Positions 1,749-11,215 of a stretch of DNA of 12,702 nt are shown here, piece by piece. Origin of the DNA: Pseudobdellovibrionaceae bacterium (GTDB lineage Bacteria > Bdellovibrionota > Bdellovibrionia > Bdellovibrionales > Bdellovibrionaceae). Location of the stretch: assembly GCA_044359815.1 (NCBI GenBank), contig JBIKLL010000076.1, forward strand, positions 1 to 12,702, given 5' to 3'. Position numbers and translations under genes: made by a program. The stretch's first letter is position 1; every line of letters begins with the position of its first letter. The notes beneath the pieces are model-generated. The model saw nothing but the letters and a program-made list of their open reading frames with translations. It was not told where the DNA came from and did not search any database.

Positions 1749-3791
1749 TTACCCTCGTGTTGTTCCAATCCCAATGGCACCTTTTGGATCCTTGATGATG
1801 GGATTACTTTGCCCTGGCGGAGCAACATTGTTTGGTGCGGGATCAGCCACAGGTGGGCATTGGTACAAGATTTCTAAAGTATGACCCACTGGAACTGGGA
1901 AATCTAAAATTATCTGATCCTTTTCAATCCTAAAACCATCGAAAATTTCGACCCCGTTGTCTTTTACGGTCACATCCACTGTTGACGGATCACCATCAAT
2001 GTCTTTGGGTACGCAATTTAAAATAAAATTCTTCTGAGCCAGTTCGGCGGTTCGGGCACCGATGCGCGACAACTGCCCCGCCCAATCGGTTTTACAAACA
2101 TCACCCAAAATCCCACCTGTCATATTGGCAATCTGAGTGTAAAGCTGACCTGGGTTTTCGTTCCTGTTTGGCCGACCTCCGCAATTGCCCACATCTGGAT
2201 AAGGCACGGTGATGGCGTTAAATACAAATCCCTTGGTATTACCCAAAGTGTTTTTAACTCCGTCCAGTAAATACTGTCCCCTTTGAACCAATGGTACGTG
2301 TGCGGAAACATTACTGAGGTTTTCATCTGCGTCAGAAACTACAATGATAGAAAAAGCAGCGTCTTGTCTGAAAAATTGCAAGCTTGGATCAGAGGCTGGA
2401 TCCCAACCAGCTGTTTGCAGCCAAGGTGTTTGCACATTTTCCGCTGATGAAAAGCCCTGATCTAATTTGTTTTTTAAATCTGTCGCAGCAGCACCCATGG
2501 TGGCTGACAAACTGGTACCTTGATTATTAAACAGCACAGATGAAATTCGACTGACTGTCATCATCCCCGATTGGCCCATAATATTTTGATTAGCAAAGCT
2601 TGCTCCAAACTGAGTCCAAATTGGCGTGATTGCGTTGTTCACGGCAGTCGTCAACGACAACGGTGATTGCTTTGCACGCAACATATTCAGCGTGTTTGAT
2701 ATCGAACCCATTTGAGAACCAATACTTGGACAATGGTAAGCTGCCCTGTCATAGCTTGTCCGAGTCACAGACCTGAAACTAGCCAACAGTGTTTTTAGCT
2801 CAGCCAACAAAGCTTGAACCTGTAAAATCTGGGCTTGGAATTCTGCCAGTGTGATCACTGGGACTTCAAGCGCTTGCTGGACCTGAGTGATTTTTGCATT
2901 GATTGGTGAAATCAATCGGCTAACAGTTGCAGATTCTAAATATGTTCGATCAGAAACACAGTTATTAAAAAATGACTGGGCCTGGTCCACTTTGCCCATC
3001 AAACCGCGGATGTTATCTTCCATATCCCGCTCTTTACTTTCGTTTGATGCCACAACTGCAGATAATAAACTACTTATAGAAGTTTTTATATTTGGATTAT
3101 TCAGATGTCTGGAGTTTCCAGCAGACTGCCTCATTGTTGCAAGATTGTTGGTAAAAGCTGTCAAGCCATCTTGAATTTTTACTATAACTGCTGTGGTTTG
3201 TTCTTTTAAATACTTTTGTTTGCTTTCAACAGCTAGCCCCTCGCTCAATCTGCGGATTGAATTAACAGCTGCCATCACTCCCTGCTCGCTACCACTGCCT
3301 CCAGTTAGCATGTCCAAGGTAGCATCAAAAGCTAACTTTCGATCCGTGGGATTCATGGTTGAATCAATATAGTAACCGTCAATACCTGGTCCTTTAAATT
3401 TTTTTAATAAACCACTGATCAAAGGAGTTGTGACATCAGTGGTAGTGATTGCCAGTCTCCAACTTAAGCCTTCTAGTTGTTGAAACATCGAAGACAATCT
3501 TTGCTTGATACTTTGATATTCAAATCCCATGGACCCAGAATCATCAACCACTAACAAAATATCTAATTTGTTGTCCCCACCTACGATGACCTTTGATTGA
3601 AATCCCAATGGAGTGAAAACATTGTTTGTAGCGGGTGGAGCTCCTGGTATGACTTCAGCTAATTCTAATTTTGTAAACTGAGCGGGACTGCAGTTTTGAA
3701 AAGCAGTCAATGAAACCAAGACTGATGTCAAAATTGATACACGCAAAACCGACGGAAACCTAATTGAATTGACCAAGTGTTTTACAGACAT
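1749..3791 (-). CDS. vWA (MIDAS) domain lipoprotein with a large internal helical insertion (680 aa)
   Basis: Hydrophobic leader ending in AFQNC (Cys34). MIDAS motif DILLVVDDSGSM, followed by RLAITTTD and GSGSEQG, and much later FFRQDAAFSIIVVSDADE. These motifs are typical of vWA surface lipoproteins of myxobacteria and Bdellovibrio (CglB/CglD-like), recognised from memory. Confidence 0.85.
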   Translation of the reverse strand: MSVKHLVNSIRFPSVLRVSILTSVLVSLTAFQNCSPAQFTKLELAEVIPGAPPATNNVFTPLGFQSKVIVGGDNKLDILLVVDDSGSMGFEYQSIKQRLSSMFQQLEGLSWRLAITTTDVTTPLISGLLKKFKGPGIDGYYIDSTMNPTDRKLAFDATLDMLTGGSGSEQGVMAAVNSIRRLSEGLAVESKQKYLKEQTTAVIVKIQDGLTAFTNNLATMRQSAGNSRHLNNPNIKTSISSLLSAVVASNESKERDMEDNIRGLMGKVDQAQSFFNNCVSDRTYLESATVSRLISPINAKITQVQQALEVPVITLAEFQAQILQVQALLAELKTLLASFRSVTRTSYDRAAYHCPSIGSQMGSISNTLNMLRAKQSPLSLTTAVNNAITPIWTQFGASFANQNIMGQSGMMTVSRISSVLFNNQGTSLSATMGAAATDLKNKLDQGFSSAENVQTPWLQTAGWDPASDPSLQFFRQDAAFSIIVVSDADENLSNVSAHVPLVQRGQYLLDGVKNTLGNTKGFVFNAITVPYPDVGNCGGRPNRNENPGQLYTQIANMTGGILGDVCKTDWAGQLSRIGARTAELAQKNFILNCVPKDIDGDPSTVDVTVKDNGVEIFDGFRIEKDQIILDFPVPVGHTLEILYQCPPVADPAPNNVAPPGQSNPIIKDPKGAIGIGTTRG

Positions 3792-4208: not shown

Positions 4209-4634
4209 CTATTCTCGCACCGAGACTGTTACATAAACTGATTTTAAAGATCTGACATTGTGCTTGTAACCCACAACTCCGATTTGTTCAGCGCACACTG
4301 TTTTGTGCAAATCAACCACCCTGTAAGTCTGTATACCTAAAGCTTCAGCAGGAATTGCTGCTGGCCATACATTGCCCTCGGTGTCTCTGATCCAAAGCTC
4401 TTTCAGCCAAAATTTTGCGTTGGCTGAACGGCCTTCTGCAAAAGTTTTCACTCTGATTTGGTCAAAGCATAAACCCTGAGCCTCAAAACTGACCAATCGC
4501 AGATTTGATTTGTTAAAAACCACCACGCCCAGATCCATCCACTGATGAGAAGGCTTGTCAGTTTTTTTAAAAACTTCAGCAAAAGCAGATATTGATACAG
4601 AGCAGATTAATAGGGCACAAATGATGGTTTTCAT
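4209..4634 (-). CDS. Hypothetical secreted protein (141 aa)
   Basis: Start re-assigned to ATG 4634, which has AGGAGA upstream (4641-4646, minus strand). This gives a classic signal peptide, MKTIICALLICSVSISAFA-E. Confidence 0.8.
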   Translation of the reverse strand: MKTIICALLICSVSISAFAEVFKKTDKPSHQWMDLGVVVFNKSNLRLVSFEAQGLCFDQIRVKTFAEGRSANAKFWLKELWIRDTEGNVWPAAIPAEALGIQTYRVVDLHKTVCAEQIGVVGYKHNVRSLKSVYVTVSVRE

Positions 4635-4706
4635 TGGAAATCTCCTTATAAAATTAAAGTGCTCACCTCGTACCATAATGATCCTAAAGAGCAAGCTATT
4701 ACCTGT

Positions 4707-4763: not shown

Positions 4764-7292
4764 ATGAGTATCAAAAATCAAAAGGGCTTATCCTTAATTG
4801 AAGTTTTAGTTTCCCTTCTCATTTTAGGACTGCTGACCGCTGGTGTCCTGTCCATGCAAAAATTAGTTTTTTCTAACGATTCTCGTGAAGTCAGTCTGTG
4901 TCGCAACACTTTGACAACCATGTTGGAAAACCTGAAAAATCATGGACAAGCTGGGTTTATTTTTGATTGGCAACCTGGGTATTTTGGAACTCGGTATGTG
5001 CCGCTGCAAAACGGATCCTATCCCTATCCGGCCATGACCGATGAAACTATCGACAACAATTTTAGGTGGCCACAAAATAACAATTACGCAGTATTAACCG
5101 GCGGTTTTGCCACGCCAGCACCCTCTGAAATTGGCTCTGGAAGATGGGTCAGTTTACCGACCACCTCGACTTCAACCACTCAGAGGACTCCAACAATGGC
5201 CGCCACAGGCTCTGAAGAAGTTTTGAAAAGCTCCATACTAATTGATTCTTACATGAATCAATTGCTGGCTCTGTATAATTCAAACACCGAATCCTTTTGC
5301 GAAAGTGAATACGGCCATGAAATTGTTAAAAATGGCGCTCTGACTGGGTTTCCAAAATGGGCCTTGGGCAACGTTGAAAATTTACCGGGCAAAGACAGCT
5401 TTAGTGTTAAACTGCATATTGAACCCAGATCTTTCACAGATCCCAACTCATCTTTGGCCTCAAAAAAATGTCCAACCAATTTATCCATTGTGCCGATGGG
5501 GTTTTTCACTCAAACAGCCTATGATGATCCCTCGGCTGATTTAACCCAACCTTACAACCAAGCTTACGTCCACTATGCAAAAATCGTAAGAGGTTTGAAT
5601 TCACTGGCAAACCTGTCTGACAACAATACTGTGCGTGATGTGGGACTGCATGTATCACTCCGCGGGGAATTTAATTCAACAGCTGATGCCAACAACAAAG
5701 TCGTATGTGAAATTTCAGATTTTTTAAAATACGACTCTGATATCGGAAAACCAAAATCTCCTAGAATCGAAGTCATTGAAAATTCCAGCTTTGATTCCTA
5801 TTTGTCAAAAATCGAAGACTGCACAAATTCAGCCCCTAACAGCAAAGTGAATTCACTGCGAGTCAGAGTAAACTCACCCGCAGACCAAGAATCAGGAACT
5901 CAATTACTGTGCTTGGATAATTCGTTTTACATCGTAGGCACCGAGGGCTGGACCTATCAAAATACAACACTGGGGAGCTATTTCAATTATCCCAACACTG
6001 AACCTTTCATCACAGCGGGTGTAAACAATCAGAACATAAAATTACCTCCGAACGATGGCTCACTATTCAGCTACAAAAAAATCCGCATGGTTCCGCCTAA
6101 ATGGGTGGGATGTGAAAGCGTCACTGCTTGTGGGGTGCAAGCTTACGGAGTAATGATGGGTGAAGGCGATAATCGCCCCTGCCCTAACGAAAAATTTTGC
6201 ATCGATTTATTGTTTAATACCAATGATGCCAACCGGGTATCCAGGGGTTGCTATGTGGATATTAAAGCCGTGGCCGTCGATACAGCCGGCAATATGTCTG
6301 AGATAATCTCGATGCCTGTGTCGACTGAAATTCCAAATTACATGTTTCCCTATGGTGGAGCTGCTGATTTAACTGCTTGTGGTGATTCGTGCGCGGGTTT
6401 GACCTATTACCCCGTTGCCACAGTTGATATCCCAAACACCAGATATCACTGCCCGGGCGGAGCGGGCACTTCCCCGACGACTTCAACCACCCTGGCCAGC
6501 ACGACCACAGTGCCTGTGGGCATACCAACAACCACAGTGCCCACTGGAACCACCTCGCCTACGGGAACCACTTCACCCACTGGAACGACTTTGCCTGGCC
6601 CAACCACAACAGCAGCCACACCAACGACTTCACCTCTACCAACCTCACCGCCGCCCACATCACCACCGGATGACCTGCCACCCGACTACGATATTGGGTG
6701 CTTACCAGCAGATTCGAAAATTTCATTGGCTGATGGCAGAGTTAAATCCATAGATCAAATTCAAAATGGTGATTTAGTTGTGGGATACGATGAAAGATTA
6801 AATCTGCCTGTGATTCAGAAAGTGCAATCACTGATTGTTCATGAACCCAGGATGCAAAGGTTTTTTAAATTTCATTTGGCCGATGGGACTGAATTTGAAT
6901 CCAACAGCATTCACCCGGTCTATATTCCCAAATATGGTACCTACAGATTTGCTCAGGATTTATATTGGGATTTCTTCCATGATAACAATCTTCAATTGTT
7001 AAATTCCCAAAAACAATTGGTCGGCGTTGTCAGCGTATCAATCACGGACCGTTTTGAGTCTGTTTACAATTTACACTTAGCAGGGCAAGACAATTTACCT
7101 GCTAATTCGCAACTATCCCCCAATTACCAATTAAGCTGGGGATATGGCCATAGTTTTTTTGCAGACGGGATTTTAGTGCATAATTCATGGGCCAGTCAGT
7201 TTGTTTTTATAAATGGGATTTTAAAACCTCTGCCCTCACAAGCTTTCCGCTTTTGCACTCGATCCGGCTGCGTAAAAAATGTCATTCCATAG
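4764..7292 (+). CDS. Prepilin-type N-terminal cleavage/methylation protein with Thr/Pro linker and C-terminal Hint (intein-like) domain (842 aa)
   Basis: Class III signal NQKG|LSLIEVLVSLLILGLL with Glu at +5. Cys-rich body with the Ig/Fn3-like strand AVDTAGNMS, then a T/P-rich linker. Hint domain from Cys646 (CLPADSKISLADG) through NSIHP (His717) and VYNL to HSFFADGILVHN807, followed by Ser808. Confidence 0.9.
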   Translation: MSIKNQKGLSLIEVLVSLLILGLLTAGVLSMQKLVFSNDSREVSLCRNTLTTMLENLKNHGQAGFIFDWQPGYFGTRYVPLQNGSYPYPAMTDETIDNNFRWPQNNNYAVLTGGFATPAPSEIGSGRWVSLPTTSTSTTQRTPTMAATGSEEVLKSSILIDSYMNQLLALYNSNTESFCESEYGHEIVKNGALTGFPKWALGNVENLPGKDSFSVKLHIEPRSFTDPNSSLASKKCPTNLSIVPMGFFTQTAYDDPSADLTQPYNQAYVHYAKIVRGLNSLANLSDNNTVRDVGLHVSLRGEFNSTADANNKVVCEISDFLKYDSDIGKPKSPRIEVIENSSFDSYLSKIEDCTNSAPNSKVNSLRVRVNSPADQESGTQLLCLDNSFYIVGTEGWTYQNTTLGSYFNYPNTEPFITAGVNNQNIKLPPNDGSLFSYKKIRMVPPKWVGCESVTACGVQAYGVMMGEGDNRPCPNEKFCIDLLFNTNDANRVSRGCYVDIKAVAVDTAGNMSEIISMPVSTEIPNYMFPYGGAADLTACGDSCAGLTYYPVATVDIPNTRYHCPGGAGTSPTTSTTLASTTTVPVGIPTTTVPTGTTSPTGTTSPTGTTLPGPTTTAATPTTSPLPTSPPPTSPPDDLPPDYDIGCLPADSKISLADGRVKSIDQIQNGDLVVGYDERLNLPVIQKVQSLIVHEPRMQRFFKFHLADGTEFESNSIHPVYIPKYGTYRFAQDLYWDFFHDNNLQLLNSQKQLVGVVSVSITDRFESVYNLHLAGQDNLPANSQLSPNYQLSWGYGHSFFADGILVHNSWASQFVFINGILKPLPSQAFRFCTRSGCVKNVIP
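6501..6593 (+). repeat. Coding tandem repeats in the Thr/Pro linker
   Basis: Two TTTVP units (6501, 6528) and three degenerate 18-nt units encoding PTGTTS/PTGTTS/PTGTTL (6540-6593). Confidence 0.8.
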
Positions 7293-7365: not shown

Positions 7366-7388
7366 GGCCTGCGGCACAGTCTGCGGCC
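7366..7388. terminator. Possible weak hairpin between convergent genes
   Basis: GC-rich GGCCTGCGGCACAGTCTGCGGCC within an AT-rich gap. The stem is imperfect and there is no clear U-tract. Confidence 0.2.
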
Positions 7389-7400
7389 GAATAGAATTTA

Positions 7401-8882
7401 TTAAGACCTTTTGTACAGTGAAAGAGCCTTATCCCTTTGGACCGAATGATTGACTATGGGTTTGGGATAACCCCCAAGGCTTCGATCAGCCTCAGGATCA
7501 TGCAGATCAGATGCTGGAATTTTTGATAATTCGGGAATATATTTTCTGATATATTCCCCAGTAGGATCAAATTTTTCGCTTTGTAACCAGGGATTAAAAA
7601 TTCTAAAATAAGGCTGCGGATCACAACCCGTCGAAGCCGCCCATTGCCAGCCCCCATTATTGGCGGCCAAATCGCCATCCAAAAGCTGTTTCATAAAATA
7701 ATTTTCACCAAGCTTCCAGTCGATCAATAAATCCTTAGTCAAAAAGGACGCCACAATCATTCGTACCCGGTTATGCATCCAACCCGTTTGATTGAGCTGT
7801 CTCATCCCCGCATCCACAATTGGAAATCCAGTTAAACCCTGGCACCATTTTTTAAAATAGGTCTGATTATTTTCCCATTGGATATTGCGAAACTGTGGCA
7901 AAAAACTTTGTGATTCCACATCGGGCCTGTGATGCAAAATCGAATAATAAAATTCACGCCAAGCCAGCTCTTTTAAAAACACCGACTGACCCGTCCCGTC
8001 CTGAAAATTTAATTTATTCAGTTGCAATAGGTTCATCGCTTGAACTGCACTTAAACTGCCATTTTTAAAATACACTGATAATCCAGAAGTTCCATTTTCA
8101 GAGGGAAAATCGCGATGAATTTTGTAATCTGAAATTCTGCTCTTAAATTGCTCAAGCCTGTCGTAAGCCACTGAAAACCCAGATTCTGGAATGGAAATAC
8201 TGACGTTTTTAGAATTTTCAGCAATAAATGCATCCAAAGAATCTTTAATAAACCCTGAATCTAATACGTCAGTCCATTTTAAATTAAAAATTTGCTTGGG
8301 TGATTTTGAATTTAAATTTTCTAAATATTTTTTACCACTGCTGCAATTTTGAATACGTTTTTGAATATTAGGATTTTGCAACAGTTGAAACCATTTTTTG
8401 GCATAGGGACTGTAGACCTGATAAAAACCATCGTCTTTTGTAACCTCCCAAGGTTCAAACAAAACATGATCTGGCTCGGTGATTAAATTTATTCCTAGGC
8501 TTTTAAAATAGTCCGACAATTGTTGGTCGCGGTCGTTTGCAAAAGGCTCGTAATCCCGATTAAAGCTAATCGTTGACGGCATATTGTTTTGAAGCTTTGA
8601 AAATATCAATTTAAAAGCTTCCAAGGGTCTGGCATCAACCACCAACAGATCCCCACCCAAACTTTGCATTTCGGATTTAAGTTTTTTGAGACTGTTTAAA
8701 AAGAAGGCGAAACGGTTGTGTGAAAAATCACTTCTGGATAAAAACACAGAATCAAAGCAAAAAATCCCCAATACCCTAGATTGATTCAGACCATGGTTTT
8801 TCTTGAGTGCCAGATTATCAGGTATCCTCAGATCCCGTCTGAACCAATGTATTCCCCATGATTGATTTTTTGATGTATTCAT
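7401..8882 (-). CDS. phrB: Deoxyribodipyrimidine photolyase, class I CPD type (493 aa)
   Basis: Motifs [50 protein letters not shown] and [30 protein letters not shown]. Trp-triad equivalents are present (IQW, IDW, GGWQW). Confidence 0.95.
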   Translation of the reverse strand: [493 protein letters not shown]

Positions 8883-9369: not shown

Positions 9370-9567
9370 CCAGTCGGAACATAAAAATATTTGTATTTTT
9401 CAGATTGACAGTATCAATCGAGTCATCGCTCTAAGTTAACTTCCTAAAATAATTCAAATTTTTTCTGACCGAAAGCTTTATCATAATAACCAAAAAAAAT
9501 CCTAACCGAATCGGAATTGAGTCTTTATCGTTTTAAGAACATCAATGAAAAAACTTCAGGAGGTTCT

Positions 9568-10206
9568 ATGATCAGTACAAAATTAAATTCCAAATCAATG
9601 GCTGAGGCAAAAAACAGCAGCCCGATTTCAACCAGAAAAATTGTTTCACCCGAGAACCTGAATCCTAACAACACATTATTTGGTGGAGCTTTAATGTCCT
9701 GGATTGATGAAATTGCCTTTATGTGCGCGCGCAGGTTTTCAGAAAACTCCAGATGCGTAACGGTTAATATAGATAATATTTCATTCAGAATGCCCATCAG
9801 GTCAGGGGAACATGTGATACTGACAGCATCTGTGGTGTCTGTTGGCAAAACTTCAATGGAAATCGAAGTCGATGTGTCTAAGGAACTGCACAATAGCGGT
9901 GAGATCATTCACACAAACCGGGCTTTTTTGACTTTTGTCAGTTTGGATGAGAAATCAAAACCCATAGCCGTGCCTAAACTGAAACTAGAAACCGAGGATG
10001 AATTTATTAAAAACCAGCAATCACTGATTCGAAAAAAGGTCAGATTGCGGCTGAAGAATTTCTTTTATAACAAAATGAAAAATCAAACTTATATAAATCA
10101 AAAAGACTCTCAAAAAACTTTATCAAAAATATCACTGGAGAACATTATTTCTGAAATCAGCAAATACACTTGGCTTAGCAAAAACATGCAAATCTTCAGG
10201 AAGTAA
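9568..10206 (+). CDS. Acyl-CoA thioesterase, hotdog fold (YciA-like), 212 aa
   Basis: Motifs NPNNTLFGGALMSWIDEIA, VTVNIDNISFRMPI, VGKTSMEIEV and LTFVSLDE. ATG 9568 is preferred over TTG 9517 because AGGAGG lies at 9558-9563. Confidence 0.9.
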   Translation: MISTKLNSKSMAEAKNSSPISTRKIVSPENLNPNNTLFGGALMSWIDEIAFMCARRFSENSRCVTVNIDNISFRMPIRSGEHVILTASVVSVGKTSMEIEVDVSKELHNSGEIIHTNRAFLTFVSLDEKSKPIAVPKLKLETEDEFIKNQQSLIRKKVRLRLKNFFYNKMKNQTYINQKDSQKTLSKISLENIISEISKYTWLSKNMQIFRK

Positions 10207-10282: not shown

Positions 10283-11215
10283 TTAGAGAGGGTTTTCTGG
10301 AACTAATGGTGGGAAGAAATACAGTGAGCCAAAGGCCCGCTCGTAGTTTGCCCGTGTGTTCACACCATCAAAATAAGTTGGATTTTGTCGACTCAAGCCA
10401 ATCACGTGGTTTCTTAGCGTCACGACGATTTCCTTTGAAATATCTCTGTAAGCAAATGGCCCACTAGTCGGCTGGCAATTGGCATCAGTGTTCATCAATG
10501 CTTCTGAACACCACCTATAGTTTTCAGCAGGTGTGTTGATAAAATATCTTACAGTTACACTGAATTTTAACGACGACGCCCTTTGGGTGCTGGGTTGCAA
10601 AACCACATCAGCTGAAAAATCAACCAGTCTGTCTACAAAAATTCTGCTGTAATCAGCGGTCAAAACCGTATCAGCACCTGGATCAAAAAATAAAACTCCA
10701 GATTTTGCAGGGGTTGGCTTCATATAATAAAGTGCTGTTCGCCTGAAATCACTAACACCATCAGCAGACTTATTGCCCTCTTCTCGGACCCAATAGGCAA
10801 TGGCATCGACATTTGCCCCTGTGTTCAAACCTGACAATGAATTTGCCCCAGTGGCATCATCCACGGTGTCCAGAAATTCATTCATTGCCGGCACTCCTGA
10901 TTTAACTATTCTCAATCCGATGGGCAGGCTGGTTAAGTCTGCTGGGTTTTCCAGAGTATTGTCACCCACAGCATAAGTAAAAAATCTTCTTAAATAATAC
11001 TCGGATCTCATTAGACTATCGTCTGCTGCCGACATTTCTGAATTTTTAAAATAAACATTCTGCGAACGCATGGTTAATTGCGAAGCCAGCAAAACAAAAA
11101 AGCCCAAAATACCCAAGGCAACCAATGATTCAATTAAAGACAAACCTTTTTGATTGTTGAGACCATTCTGACTGCTCAGATACTTTAGAATGTTCGGGCA
11201 CTTAAGGTTTTTCAT
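10283..11215 (-). CDS. Prepilin-type N-terminal cleavage/methylation protein (minor pilin/pseudopilin, PilW/GspJ-like), 310 aa
   Basis: NQKG|LSLIESLVALGILGFFVLLA class III signal with Glu at +5, followed by an amphipathic helix, a beta-rich domain and a C-terminal Cys pair. Confidence 0.85.
   Translation of the reverse strand: MKNLKCPNILKYLSSQNGLNNQKGLSLIESLVALGILGFFVLLASQLTMRSQNVYFKNSEMSAADDSLMRSEYYLRRFFTYAVGDNTLENPADLTSLPIGLRIVKSGVPAMNEFLDTVDDATGANSLSGLNTGANVDAIAYWVREEGNKSADGVSDFRRTALYYMKPTPAKSGVLFFDPGADTVLTADYSRIFVDRLVDFSADVVLQPSTQRASSLKFSVTVRYFINTPAENYRWCSEALMNTDANCQPTSGPFAYRDISKEIVVTLRNHVIGLSRQNPTYFDGVNTRANYERAFGSLYFFPPLVPENPL

Follow-up and report, generated by a model that had tools for sequence, protein, structure and literature searches.

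The gene described here occupies positions 4764..7292 on the forward strand of a 12,702-nucleotide stretch of DNA, called the window below, from a Pseudobdellovibrionaceae bacterium (GenBank assembly GCA_044359815.1, contig JBIKLL010000076.1). The window is an entire 12.7-kb contig (C91), and its parent metagenome-assembled genome comprises 2.95 Mb in 125 contigs and is 91% complete. Judged from its sequence, the gene product is a large type IV pilin-like protein of modular build that ends in a Hint domain. Its parts are given below; −1 and +1 denote the residues that flank the Hint domain, BIL stands for bacterial intein-like, and pLDDT is the per-residue confidence score of the AlphaFold2 (AF2) model.

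4764..7292 (+): whole pilin-Hint gene, 842 amino acids plus stop, from the open reading frame list and its translation
4764..4787 (+): class III prepilin leader M1-G8, predicted to be cut by a prepilin peptidase after Gly8
4788..4868 (+): mature N-terminus L9-V35, LSLIE and then the hydrophobic alpha1-N helix
4869..6464 (+): Cys-rich body (14 Cys), residues 36-567
6465..6683 (+): Thr/Pro-rich linker ("stalk"), residues 568-640, 73 amino acids including 28 Thr, 18 Pro and 8 Ser
6684..6698 (+): N-flank DYDIG, residues 641-645, whose −1 residue is Gly645
6699..7184 (+): Hint domain of BIL/PT-HINT type, Cys646-Asn807, 162 amino acids
6699-6701 (+): Cys646, the position 1 nucleophile, Cys in 112/112 aligned domains
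6912-6914 (+): His717, the block B histidine of the motif N714-x-x-H717, His in 112/112
7179-7184 (+): C-terminal His806-Asn807, His in 111/112 and Asn in 112/112
7185-7187 (+): Ser808, the +1 residue; Ser, Thr or Cys at +1 in 9/112 domains
7185..7289 (+): 35-residue tail with Cys831 and Cys836, of low pLDDT in the AF2 model
7290-7292 (+): stop codon of the pilin-Hint gene

A first-pass annotation of this DNA had delineated the open reading frame, prepilin leader, Cys-rich body, Thr/Pro linker and Hint coordinates, and all of these agree with the translation. Contigs from four other lake-water runs showed 0 differences across the gene, and three of these contigs (X2 record 5, X3 record 8 and X4 record 14) bridge the junction between linker and Hint. 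Because independent lake-metagenome contigs span this junction, the fusion is not an assembly chimera. Joints that skip the Hint domain were absent from the contigs of the four runs, a material in which a Hint-less allele may be missed since contigs drop rare variants. The GC content was 0.383 in the Hint domain, 0.442 in the body, 0.616 in the linker and 0.406 in the window; a foreign origin of the Hint domain was considered on this basis and set aside, as the contrast is too weak to argue it.

The N-terminus is that of a type IV prepilin. The protein starts MSIKNQKG/LSLIEVLVSLLILGLL, where the slash marks the predicted peptidase site, with Gly at −1 and Glu at +5 (Glu13) relative to that site, and a hydrophobic stretch of 21 residues follows LSLIE. 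Pfam N_methyl matched residues 4-29 with 29.4 bits (cut-off 21.2), and TIGR02532 scored 20.9 bits (cut-off 16.3); scores against the PilV and GspH equivalog models fell far below their cut-offs. Two homologues of the A24 prepilin peptidase are encoded in the genome (PF01478, 81.3 and 58.8 bits, both above the cut-off), together with seven N_methyl genes, four of which cluster elsewhere in the genome. One of the seven is probably a major pilin.

At the other end of the protein, all four positions of a class 1 intein are present (Cys646, His717, His806-Asn807 and Ser808), and TIGR01443 (intein_Cterm) matched residues 795-808 with 21.1 bits, above its cut-off of 15.6. An exhaustive phmmer search with residues 641-842 against 1.84 billion representatives returned 398 matches at E<=1e-3, 100 at E<=1e-10 and 3 at E<=1e-30, most of which extend from Cys646 to Asn807. 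The AF2 model of the Hint domain, built on a 47-sequence alignment, reached a pLDDT of 83.1 and a predicted template modelling score (pTM) of 0.79, with pLDDT above 90 over model residues 11-130. Foldseek returned 63 matches in the PDB at E<=1e-3, and those listed were all Hint folds (BILs, inteins, Hog or Vint). They include BIL2 of Tetrahymena BUBL1 (6y75_A; E 1.8e-11, template modelling (TM) score by target 0.82, 18% identity), a Clostridium thermocellum BIL (2lwy; TM by target 0.86) and Hedgehog (1at0; TM by target 0.79), with the gp41-1 intein (6riz) and DnaB mini-inteins also among the top matches. A profile compared with PDB sequences gave 8w20_A (1.4e-12), BIL2 (1.3e-10) and 2lwy (7.8e-4). 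The domain thus appears to be a Hint domain of the BIL/pretoxin-HINT kind, catalytically intact by its residues. The earlier description of a type IV pilin-like protein carrying a complete Hint domain is borne out at both ends, by the N_methyl and TIGR02532 scores at the leader and, at the C-terminus, by relatives, profile and fold as well as by the catalytic and +1 residues.

How such a domain might act was approached through an alignment of 112 full-length Hint domains (the query and 111 relatives). Cys1, the block B His and the terminal Asn were present in all 112 and the penultimate His in 111, a near-invariance that argues for selection on both junction reactions. Position 714 of block B was Asn in 76 domains, Thr in 34 and Ser in 2, and the −1 residue was Gly in 34, Ser in 26 and Ala in 10. 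The +1 position was occupied by Lys (30), Ala (21), Val (16), Leu (10), Ser (8) and Thr (1), never by Cys, and by other residues in the rest, so that a nucleophile stands there in 9 of 112 domains overall and in 2 of 41 on pilin-type hosts, and a non-nucleophilic residue in 103. The Hint domain is usually the last domain of its protein; the tails behind it have a median length of 37 amino acids, 46 of the 112 are shorter than 20, and many comprise only 0-10 residues. Because the family lacks a +1 nucleophile and its tails are often tiny, cleavage is favoured over dedicated splicing. The first-pass annotation had called the domain potentially splicing-competent, which stands insofar as the residues are present in this sequence and fails as a trait of the family, in which few domains have a +1 nucleophile.

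Our leading reading, which we hold with no more conviction than doubt, is that the Hint domain would mainly cleave one or both of its junctions, a BIL-like self-removal accompanied by some ligation of stalk to tail. According to passages of two papers, BIL domains cleave at either end and sometimes splice (PMC5874633, PMC9185962). The gene product would belong to the minor-pilin or pseudopilin class and lie on the surface of an uncultured Bdellovibrio-like lake bacterium. It would be exported, its class III leader would be cut after Gly8 by a prepilin peptidase, and its hydrophobic N-terminal helix would allow it to be carried by a type IV filament. The filament would then display the Cys-rich body and the 73-residue Thr/Pro stalk, with the Hint domain at the far end of the stalk. 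After export the Hint domain would most likely remove itself: Cys646 and Gly645 would form a thioester by an N-to-S acyl shift, with His717 assisting, and Asn807 would cyclise with the help of His806 and so break the bond to Ser808. Cleavage would free the mature pilin-like protein from the Hint domain, and stalk-to-tail ligation would be a side or alternative product.

Several observations weigh against this reading. The pilin-Hint gene sits outside any pilus-machine operon, and a full-text literature search, in which most candidates were judged by title or the start of the abstract, found no experimental study of a pilin-Hint fusion. The body matched no Pfam family; with an alignment of 4 sequences, AF2 modelled residues 1-570 at a pLDDT of 40.5 and predicted only N-terminal helices, including helix 11-35, and an ESM Atlas search with the body gave only pilin-like leads (0.81, TM below 0.3). 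A pilin fold of the body and its incorporation into a filament are hypothetical. The Hint domain is itself divergent. The Pfam Hint model PF01079 scored 25.6 bits on the whole protein and at best 28.7 bits, on the domain alone, narrowly below its cut-off of 29.7; the PT-HINT profile PF07591 matched neither the domain (E<=10) nor anything in the genome (E<=0.1); block A is CLPADS in place of the CF[VI]AGT of the family; and in a tree of the 112 Hint domains the query lies on a long branch. Because of the missed Pfam cut-off, the lack of a PT-HINT match, the long branch and the divergent block A, reduced or altered activity is possible. Pilin-type hosts form no clade near the query in this tree, which was not used as evidence.

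The strongest rival to cleavage is true cis-splicing as a class 1 mini-intein, which we regard as unlikely on present evidence. Here a thioester would form at Cys646, Ser808 would take over the N-flank and Asn807 would cyclise, leaving the 35-residue tail joined by a peptide bond to Gly645 and a mature form of 680 amino acids made up of body, stalk and tail. All the residues that this chemistry calls for are in place, and the closer relatives of the protein bear on it directly. Three body relatives were found. P0002 (635 amino acids), encoded on a 25.7-kb contig, shows 58% identity across residues 5-567, with the leader, body and Thr/Pro linker all present; it has no Hint domain, and its YTDIG, the counterpart of DYDIG, runs directly into a 33-residue tail with six Cys. 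A spliced product would have this same layout of body, stalk and short tail, which makes P0002 the best argument for splicing; Ser808 and a Hint-less P0002 whose short tail comes right after DIG fit splicing better than they fit simple cleavage. L024, an orthologue with 86% identity, lies on a metagenome contig of 5 kb and has a Thr/Pro linker; its C-terminal part is lost at the contig end. It reads DYNVG/CLPADSKISLADG ahead of that end and so carries the Hint domain too; it retains the Gly-Cys pair and shows 2 substitutions in the first 31 Hint residues. P0012 (744 amino acids), the sole distant full-length homologue having both body and Hint, combines a prepilin leader, a body that is 29% identical (E 2e-37), a Thr/Pro linker and a Hint domain that is 33% identical. 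Other routes to body homologues added little: word-index searches found only P0002, with none among shorter proteins, 40 relatives searched with the body gave nothing beyond one leader-only match, and a metagenome scan with P0002 as query gave no match, whereas one with a two-sequence alignment gave a single orthologue, L024.

Tail length stays at 35, 35 and 33 residues in the window protein, P0012 and P0002, the three members whose tails are known, which counts in favour of splicing. The similarity among these tails is not significant, however, as 595, 1441 and 584 of 2000 shuffles reached the observed scores; homologous tails or a contiguous extein are not claimed, and the argument from P0002 loses force accordingly. 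Ala stands at +1 in P0012, a homologue of the window protein in body and Hint alike, and the scarcity of +1 nucleophiles and the tails of just 0-10 residues in many relatives also speak against splicing. Body and Hint stay paired down to 29% identity, and the Hint domain is present in the most distant member but missing from a closer one; parsimony therefore favours an ancestral Hint domain that P0002 has lost over the insertion of a mobile intein. Dedicated canonical splicing would therefore be chemically possible in the window protein through Ser808, yet it does not appear to be a family trait.

A second rival, which we judge improbable, is transfer of the Gly645 thioester to a nucleophile other than Ser808, an amine or a hydroxyl, as in Hedgehog or Tetrahymena BUBL BIL2. 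Candidate acceptors would be Lys821 or Lys838 of the tail, another protein, a cell-envelope component or a molecule of the prey surface, and the pilin-borne body would become covalently tethered, giving the covalent-capture adhesin that the first-pass annotation had proposed. According to passages of PMC8616854, BIL2 (6Y75/6TMM), the closest solved structure, forms an isopeptide bond between a Lys epsilon-amine and a C-terminus and attaches its N-flank to other proteins. In the Hint family, both +1 (30/112) and +2 (42/112) are most often Lys, and the protein would be displayed on a long stalk. The window protein, by contrast, carries Ser at +1 and Trp at +2 and shows no evident adduct-recognition region, its tail being short and of low confidence in the model, and the terminal Asn, invariant in all 112 domains, is dispensable for transfer of the Hedgehog type. 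A more specific version, drawn by analogy, holds that the Hint domain would be a one-shot ligase at the tip of a pilus-borne stalk, making the protein a covalently anchoring, single-use adhesin whose Gly645 would be joined to a Lys of a partner pilin or to an envelope or prey molecule; we regard this as a long shot. If it were true, variable bodies combined with constant pilin leaders and C-terminal Hint domains would amount to a toolkit for covalent attachment. The weakest rival, that the Hint domain is an inactive or structural C-terminal globular module whose catalytic residues are kept only through recent descent, draws on the divergent block A, the scores against the two Pfam profiles and the long branch, and is very doubtful given that all catalytic positions are kept, that L024 retains Gly-Cys and nearly all of its first 31 Hint residues at 86% identity, and that most of the model folds with high confidence.

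Self-removal by cleavage, the preferred reading, concerns a design that extends well beyond this gene. A screen of N-termini by motif and hydrophobicity flagged 65 of the best 150 relatives of the Hint domain, comprising 26 canonical prepilin leaders with Glu at +5, 18 judged pilin-like without Glu, and 21 false positives (Gly-rich or Sec-type). As 30 of the 150 are fragments, pilin-type N-termini number 26 + 17 among 120 complete-looking relatives; the other hosts carry lipoprotein signals, Sec signals or other N-termini. In a Pfam scan of the first 74 of the best 150 relatives, N_methyl was matched at E<=1e-3 by 8, of which 4 were above the cut-off, and 59 of the 74 reached the PT-HINT cut-off, most of them also matching Hint or Hom_end_hint. 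The first-pass annotation had supposed that pilin-Hint architectures might already exist in databases, and they do, as the 26 canonical and about 18 pilin-like N-termini in the top 150 attest. A pilin leader combined with a C-terminal Hint domain is thus a recurrent design, common in environmental bacteria.

Within the phylum of the window, the distribution of this Hint type is sporadic. At E<=1e-8 it was found in 15 of 400 other genomes of the phylum and in 0 of 53 other genomes of the window's own family; among nearer relatives, 7 of 60 match the Hint part of a mixed model. A pilin-type N-terminus together with a Hint domain was seen at loci of three genomes of the phylum (G275, G416 and G327), and in G416 a pilin-like gene overlaps the start of the pilin-like-Hint gene. 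The pilin-Hint proteins of G275 and the window match in the leader region (E 4e-4) and in the Hint domain (E 2e-23), with no match between their bodies. The G275 protein has a non-nucleophilic +1 residue and a short tail, LNSNKL.

Other arrangements of the domain were also observed. Seven loci of the same phylum (L048, L049, L052, L053, L038, L041 and L044) form a subgroup with the block A sequence CFPGET, Cys at +1, Sec-type signals and long C-terminal regions after the Hint domain; to judge by this layout, the subgroup looks like the pretoxin-HINT arrangement of bacterial polymorphic toxins. Tandem Hint domains occur in P0005, P0018, P0004, P0135 and P0143, with linkers down to 7 residues (HN-KVVNPYS-C), and recall BIL arrays. 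Many of the longer tails are Cys-rich. Such tails, 40-75 residues long and placed behind the His-Asn, recur in P0014, P0015, P0017, P0029, P0039 and P0047 and in P0035, P0044, P0107 and P0149, and follow at least two classes of pattern, one ending ...G..CC.. and the other with YPRG[IF]FC-like motifs. They may be a module that the Hint domain delivers or releases.

Among known systems, the closest counterpart is the A-type BIL or PT-HINT domain (PF07591; 2LWY), with which the window domain shares a size of about 140-160 amino acids, the Hint fold, Cys1, the block B His and the terminal His-Asn, as well as a secreted or surface host in which the Hint domain lies in a variable region, being absent from P0002. 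The Hint family also resembles it in its usually non-nucleophilic +1 residue and in the PT-HINT matches of its scanned members. The window protein differs in that it is unmatched by PT-HINT and has Ser at +1, and in that its Hint domain lies at the C-terminal end of a prepilin-type protein, followed by a 35-residue tail and by no toxin or large domain. Amitai (2003) and Dassa (2004) are said to have given the defining motifs of A-type BIL domains, and Dori-Bachash et al. (2009) reportedly described C-type BIL domains of Bdellovibrio-like predatory bacteria. A review-style passage has it that C-type BILs are accompanied by a "putative predator-specific domain 1". C-type BILs are possibly also among the closest known kinds: they too are Hint domains of BIL type from Bdellovibrio-like predators, a likeness by description only. 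The Hint type of the window, for its part, is absent from the 53 other genomes of its own family at the threshold given above.

Hedgehog Hog (1AT0) is comparable as a C-terminal Hint domain that uses a Gly-Cys thioester to detach the functional N-terminal part of its protein. A sterol-recognition region belongs to Hog, which does not require a terminal His-Asn; the window family, in contrast, has an invariant terminal Asn preceded by His in 111 of 112 domains, and an adduct-binding region was not seen in the window protein. BIL2 of T. thermophila BUBL1 is the best structural match and among the best sequence matches, and is likewise a BIL-type Hint domain with Cys1 and a terminal Asn; it differs in being eukaryotic, flanked by ubiquitin-like domains and only 18% identical. 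On the pilin side, the modular type IV pilins PilB and PilC of Streptococcus sanguinis carry adhesive modules (vWA and lectin; Raynaud et al. 2021, PMC8179133). They resemble the window protein in combining a class III signal peptide and a pilin module with an extra functional module, and differ in that their characterised modules are adhesive and not self-processing. Dataset S1 of the same paper lists "IPR012902 - PF07591" with 1 protein, a published instance of the pilin-Hint pairing; Hint and intein are unmentioned in its main text, and six other Hint accessions are absent from Dataset S1. The pairing is thus catalogued in databases, without an experimental characterisation having been found, and both the domain and its chemistry are known.

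The remaining features of the window are as follows.

1749-3791 (−): 680-amino-acid protein scoring weakly (62.8 bits, cut-off 700) against NF052240, a model of Bdellovibrio MIDAS-family adhesins
4209-4694 (−): 161-amino-acid protein matching no known family, divergently upstream of the pilin-Hint gene
~7370-7395: inverted repeat between the pilin-Hint gene and the photolyase gene
7401-8882 (−): deoxyribodipyrimidine photolyase gene, convergent with the 3′ end of the pilin-Hint gene
9517-10206 (+): 4HBT thioesterase gene, adjoining the second pilin-like gene
10283..11215 (−): second pilin-like gene, 310 amino acids, with the near-identical leader NQKG/LSLIE and an N_methyl score of 23.9 bits

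The second pilin-like gene is a possible partner of the pilin-Hint protein. Genome G275 has a 4HBT thioesterase gene and two pilin-like genes at a distance of about 5 kb from its pilin-Hint gene, and one of these two pilin-like genes, within the thioesterase/pilin-like pair at L056:1985-3339, is homologous to window gene 10283-11215 (E 4e-13). The 680-residue protein carries a vWA-like LLVVDDSGSM motif and may be another surface adhesin near the pilin-Hint gene. The 161-residue protein is probably secreted, and its gene keeps the same position in the orthologous contig (L024:2465-2950, −) with 91% identity. A scan for promoters and terminators around the pilin-Hint gene gave counts no better than those in shuffled sequence.

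A specialist's surprise at this protein would be moderate, since the Hint kind is known and the pilin-Hint pairing already figures in a published table. Uncultured bacteria use this design often, about one third of the complete-looking Hint relatives having pilin-type N-termini. Modular minor pilins are believed to bring type IV filaments new functions, and a self-processing module would add to these a maturation that takes place after export, by cleavage, ligation or tethering.

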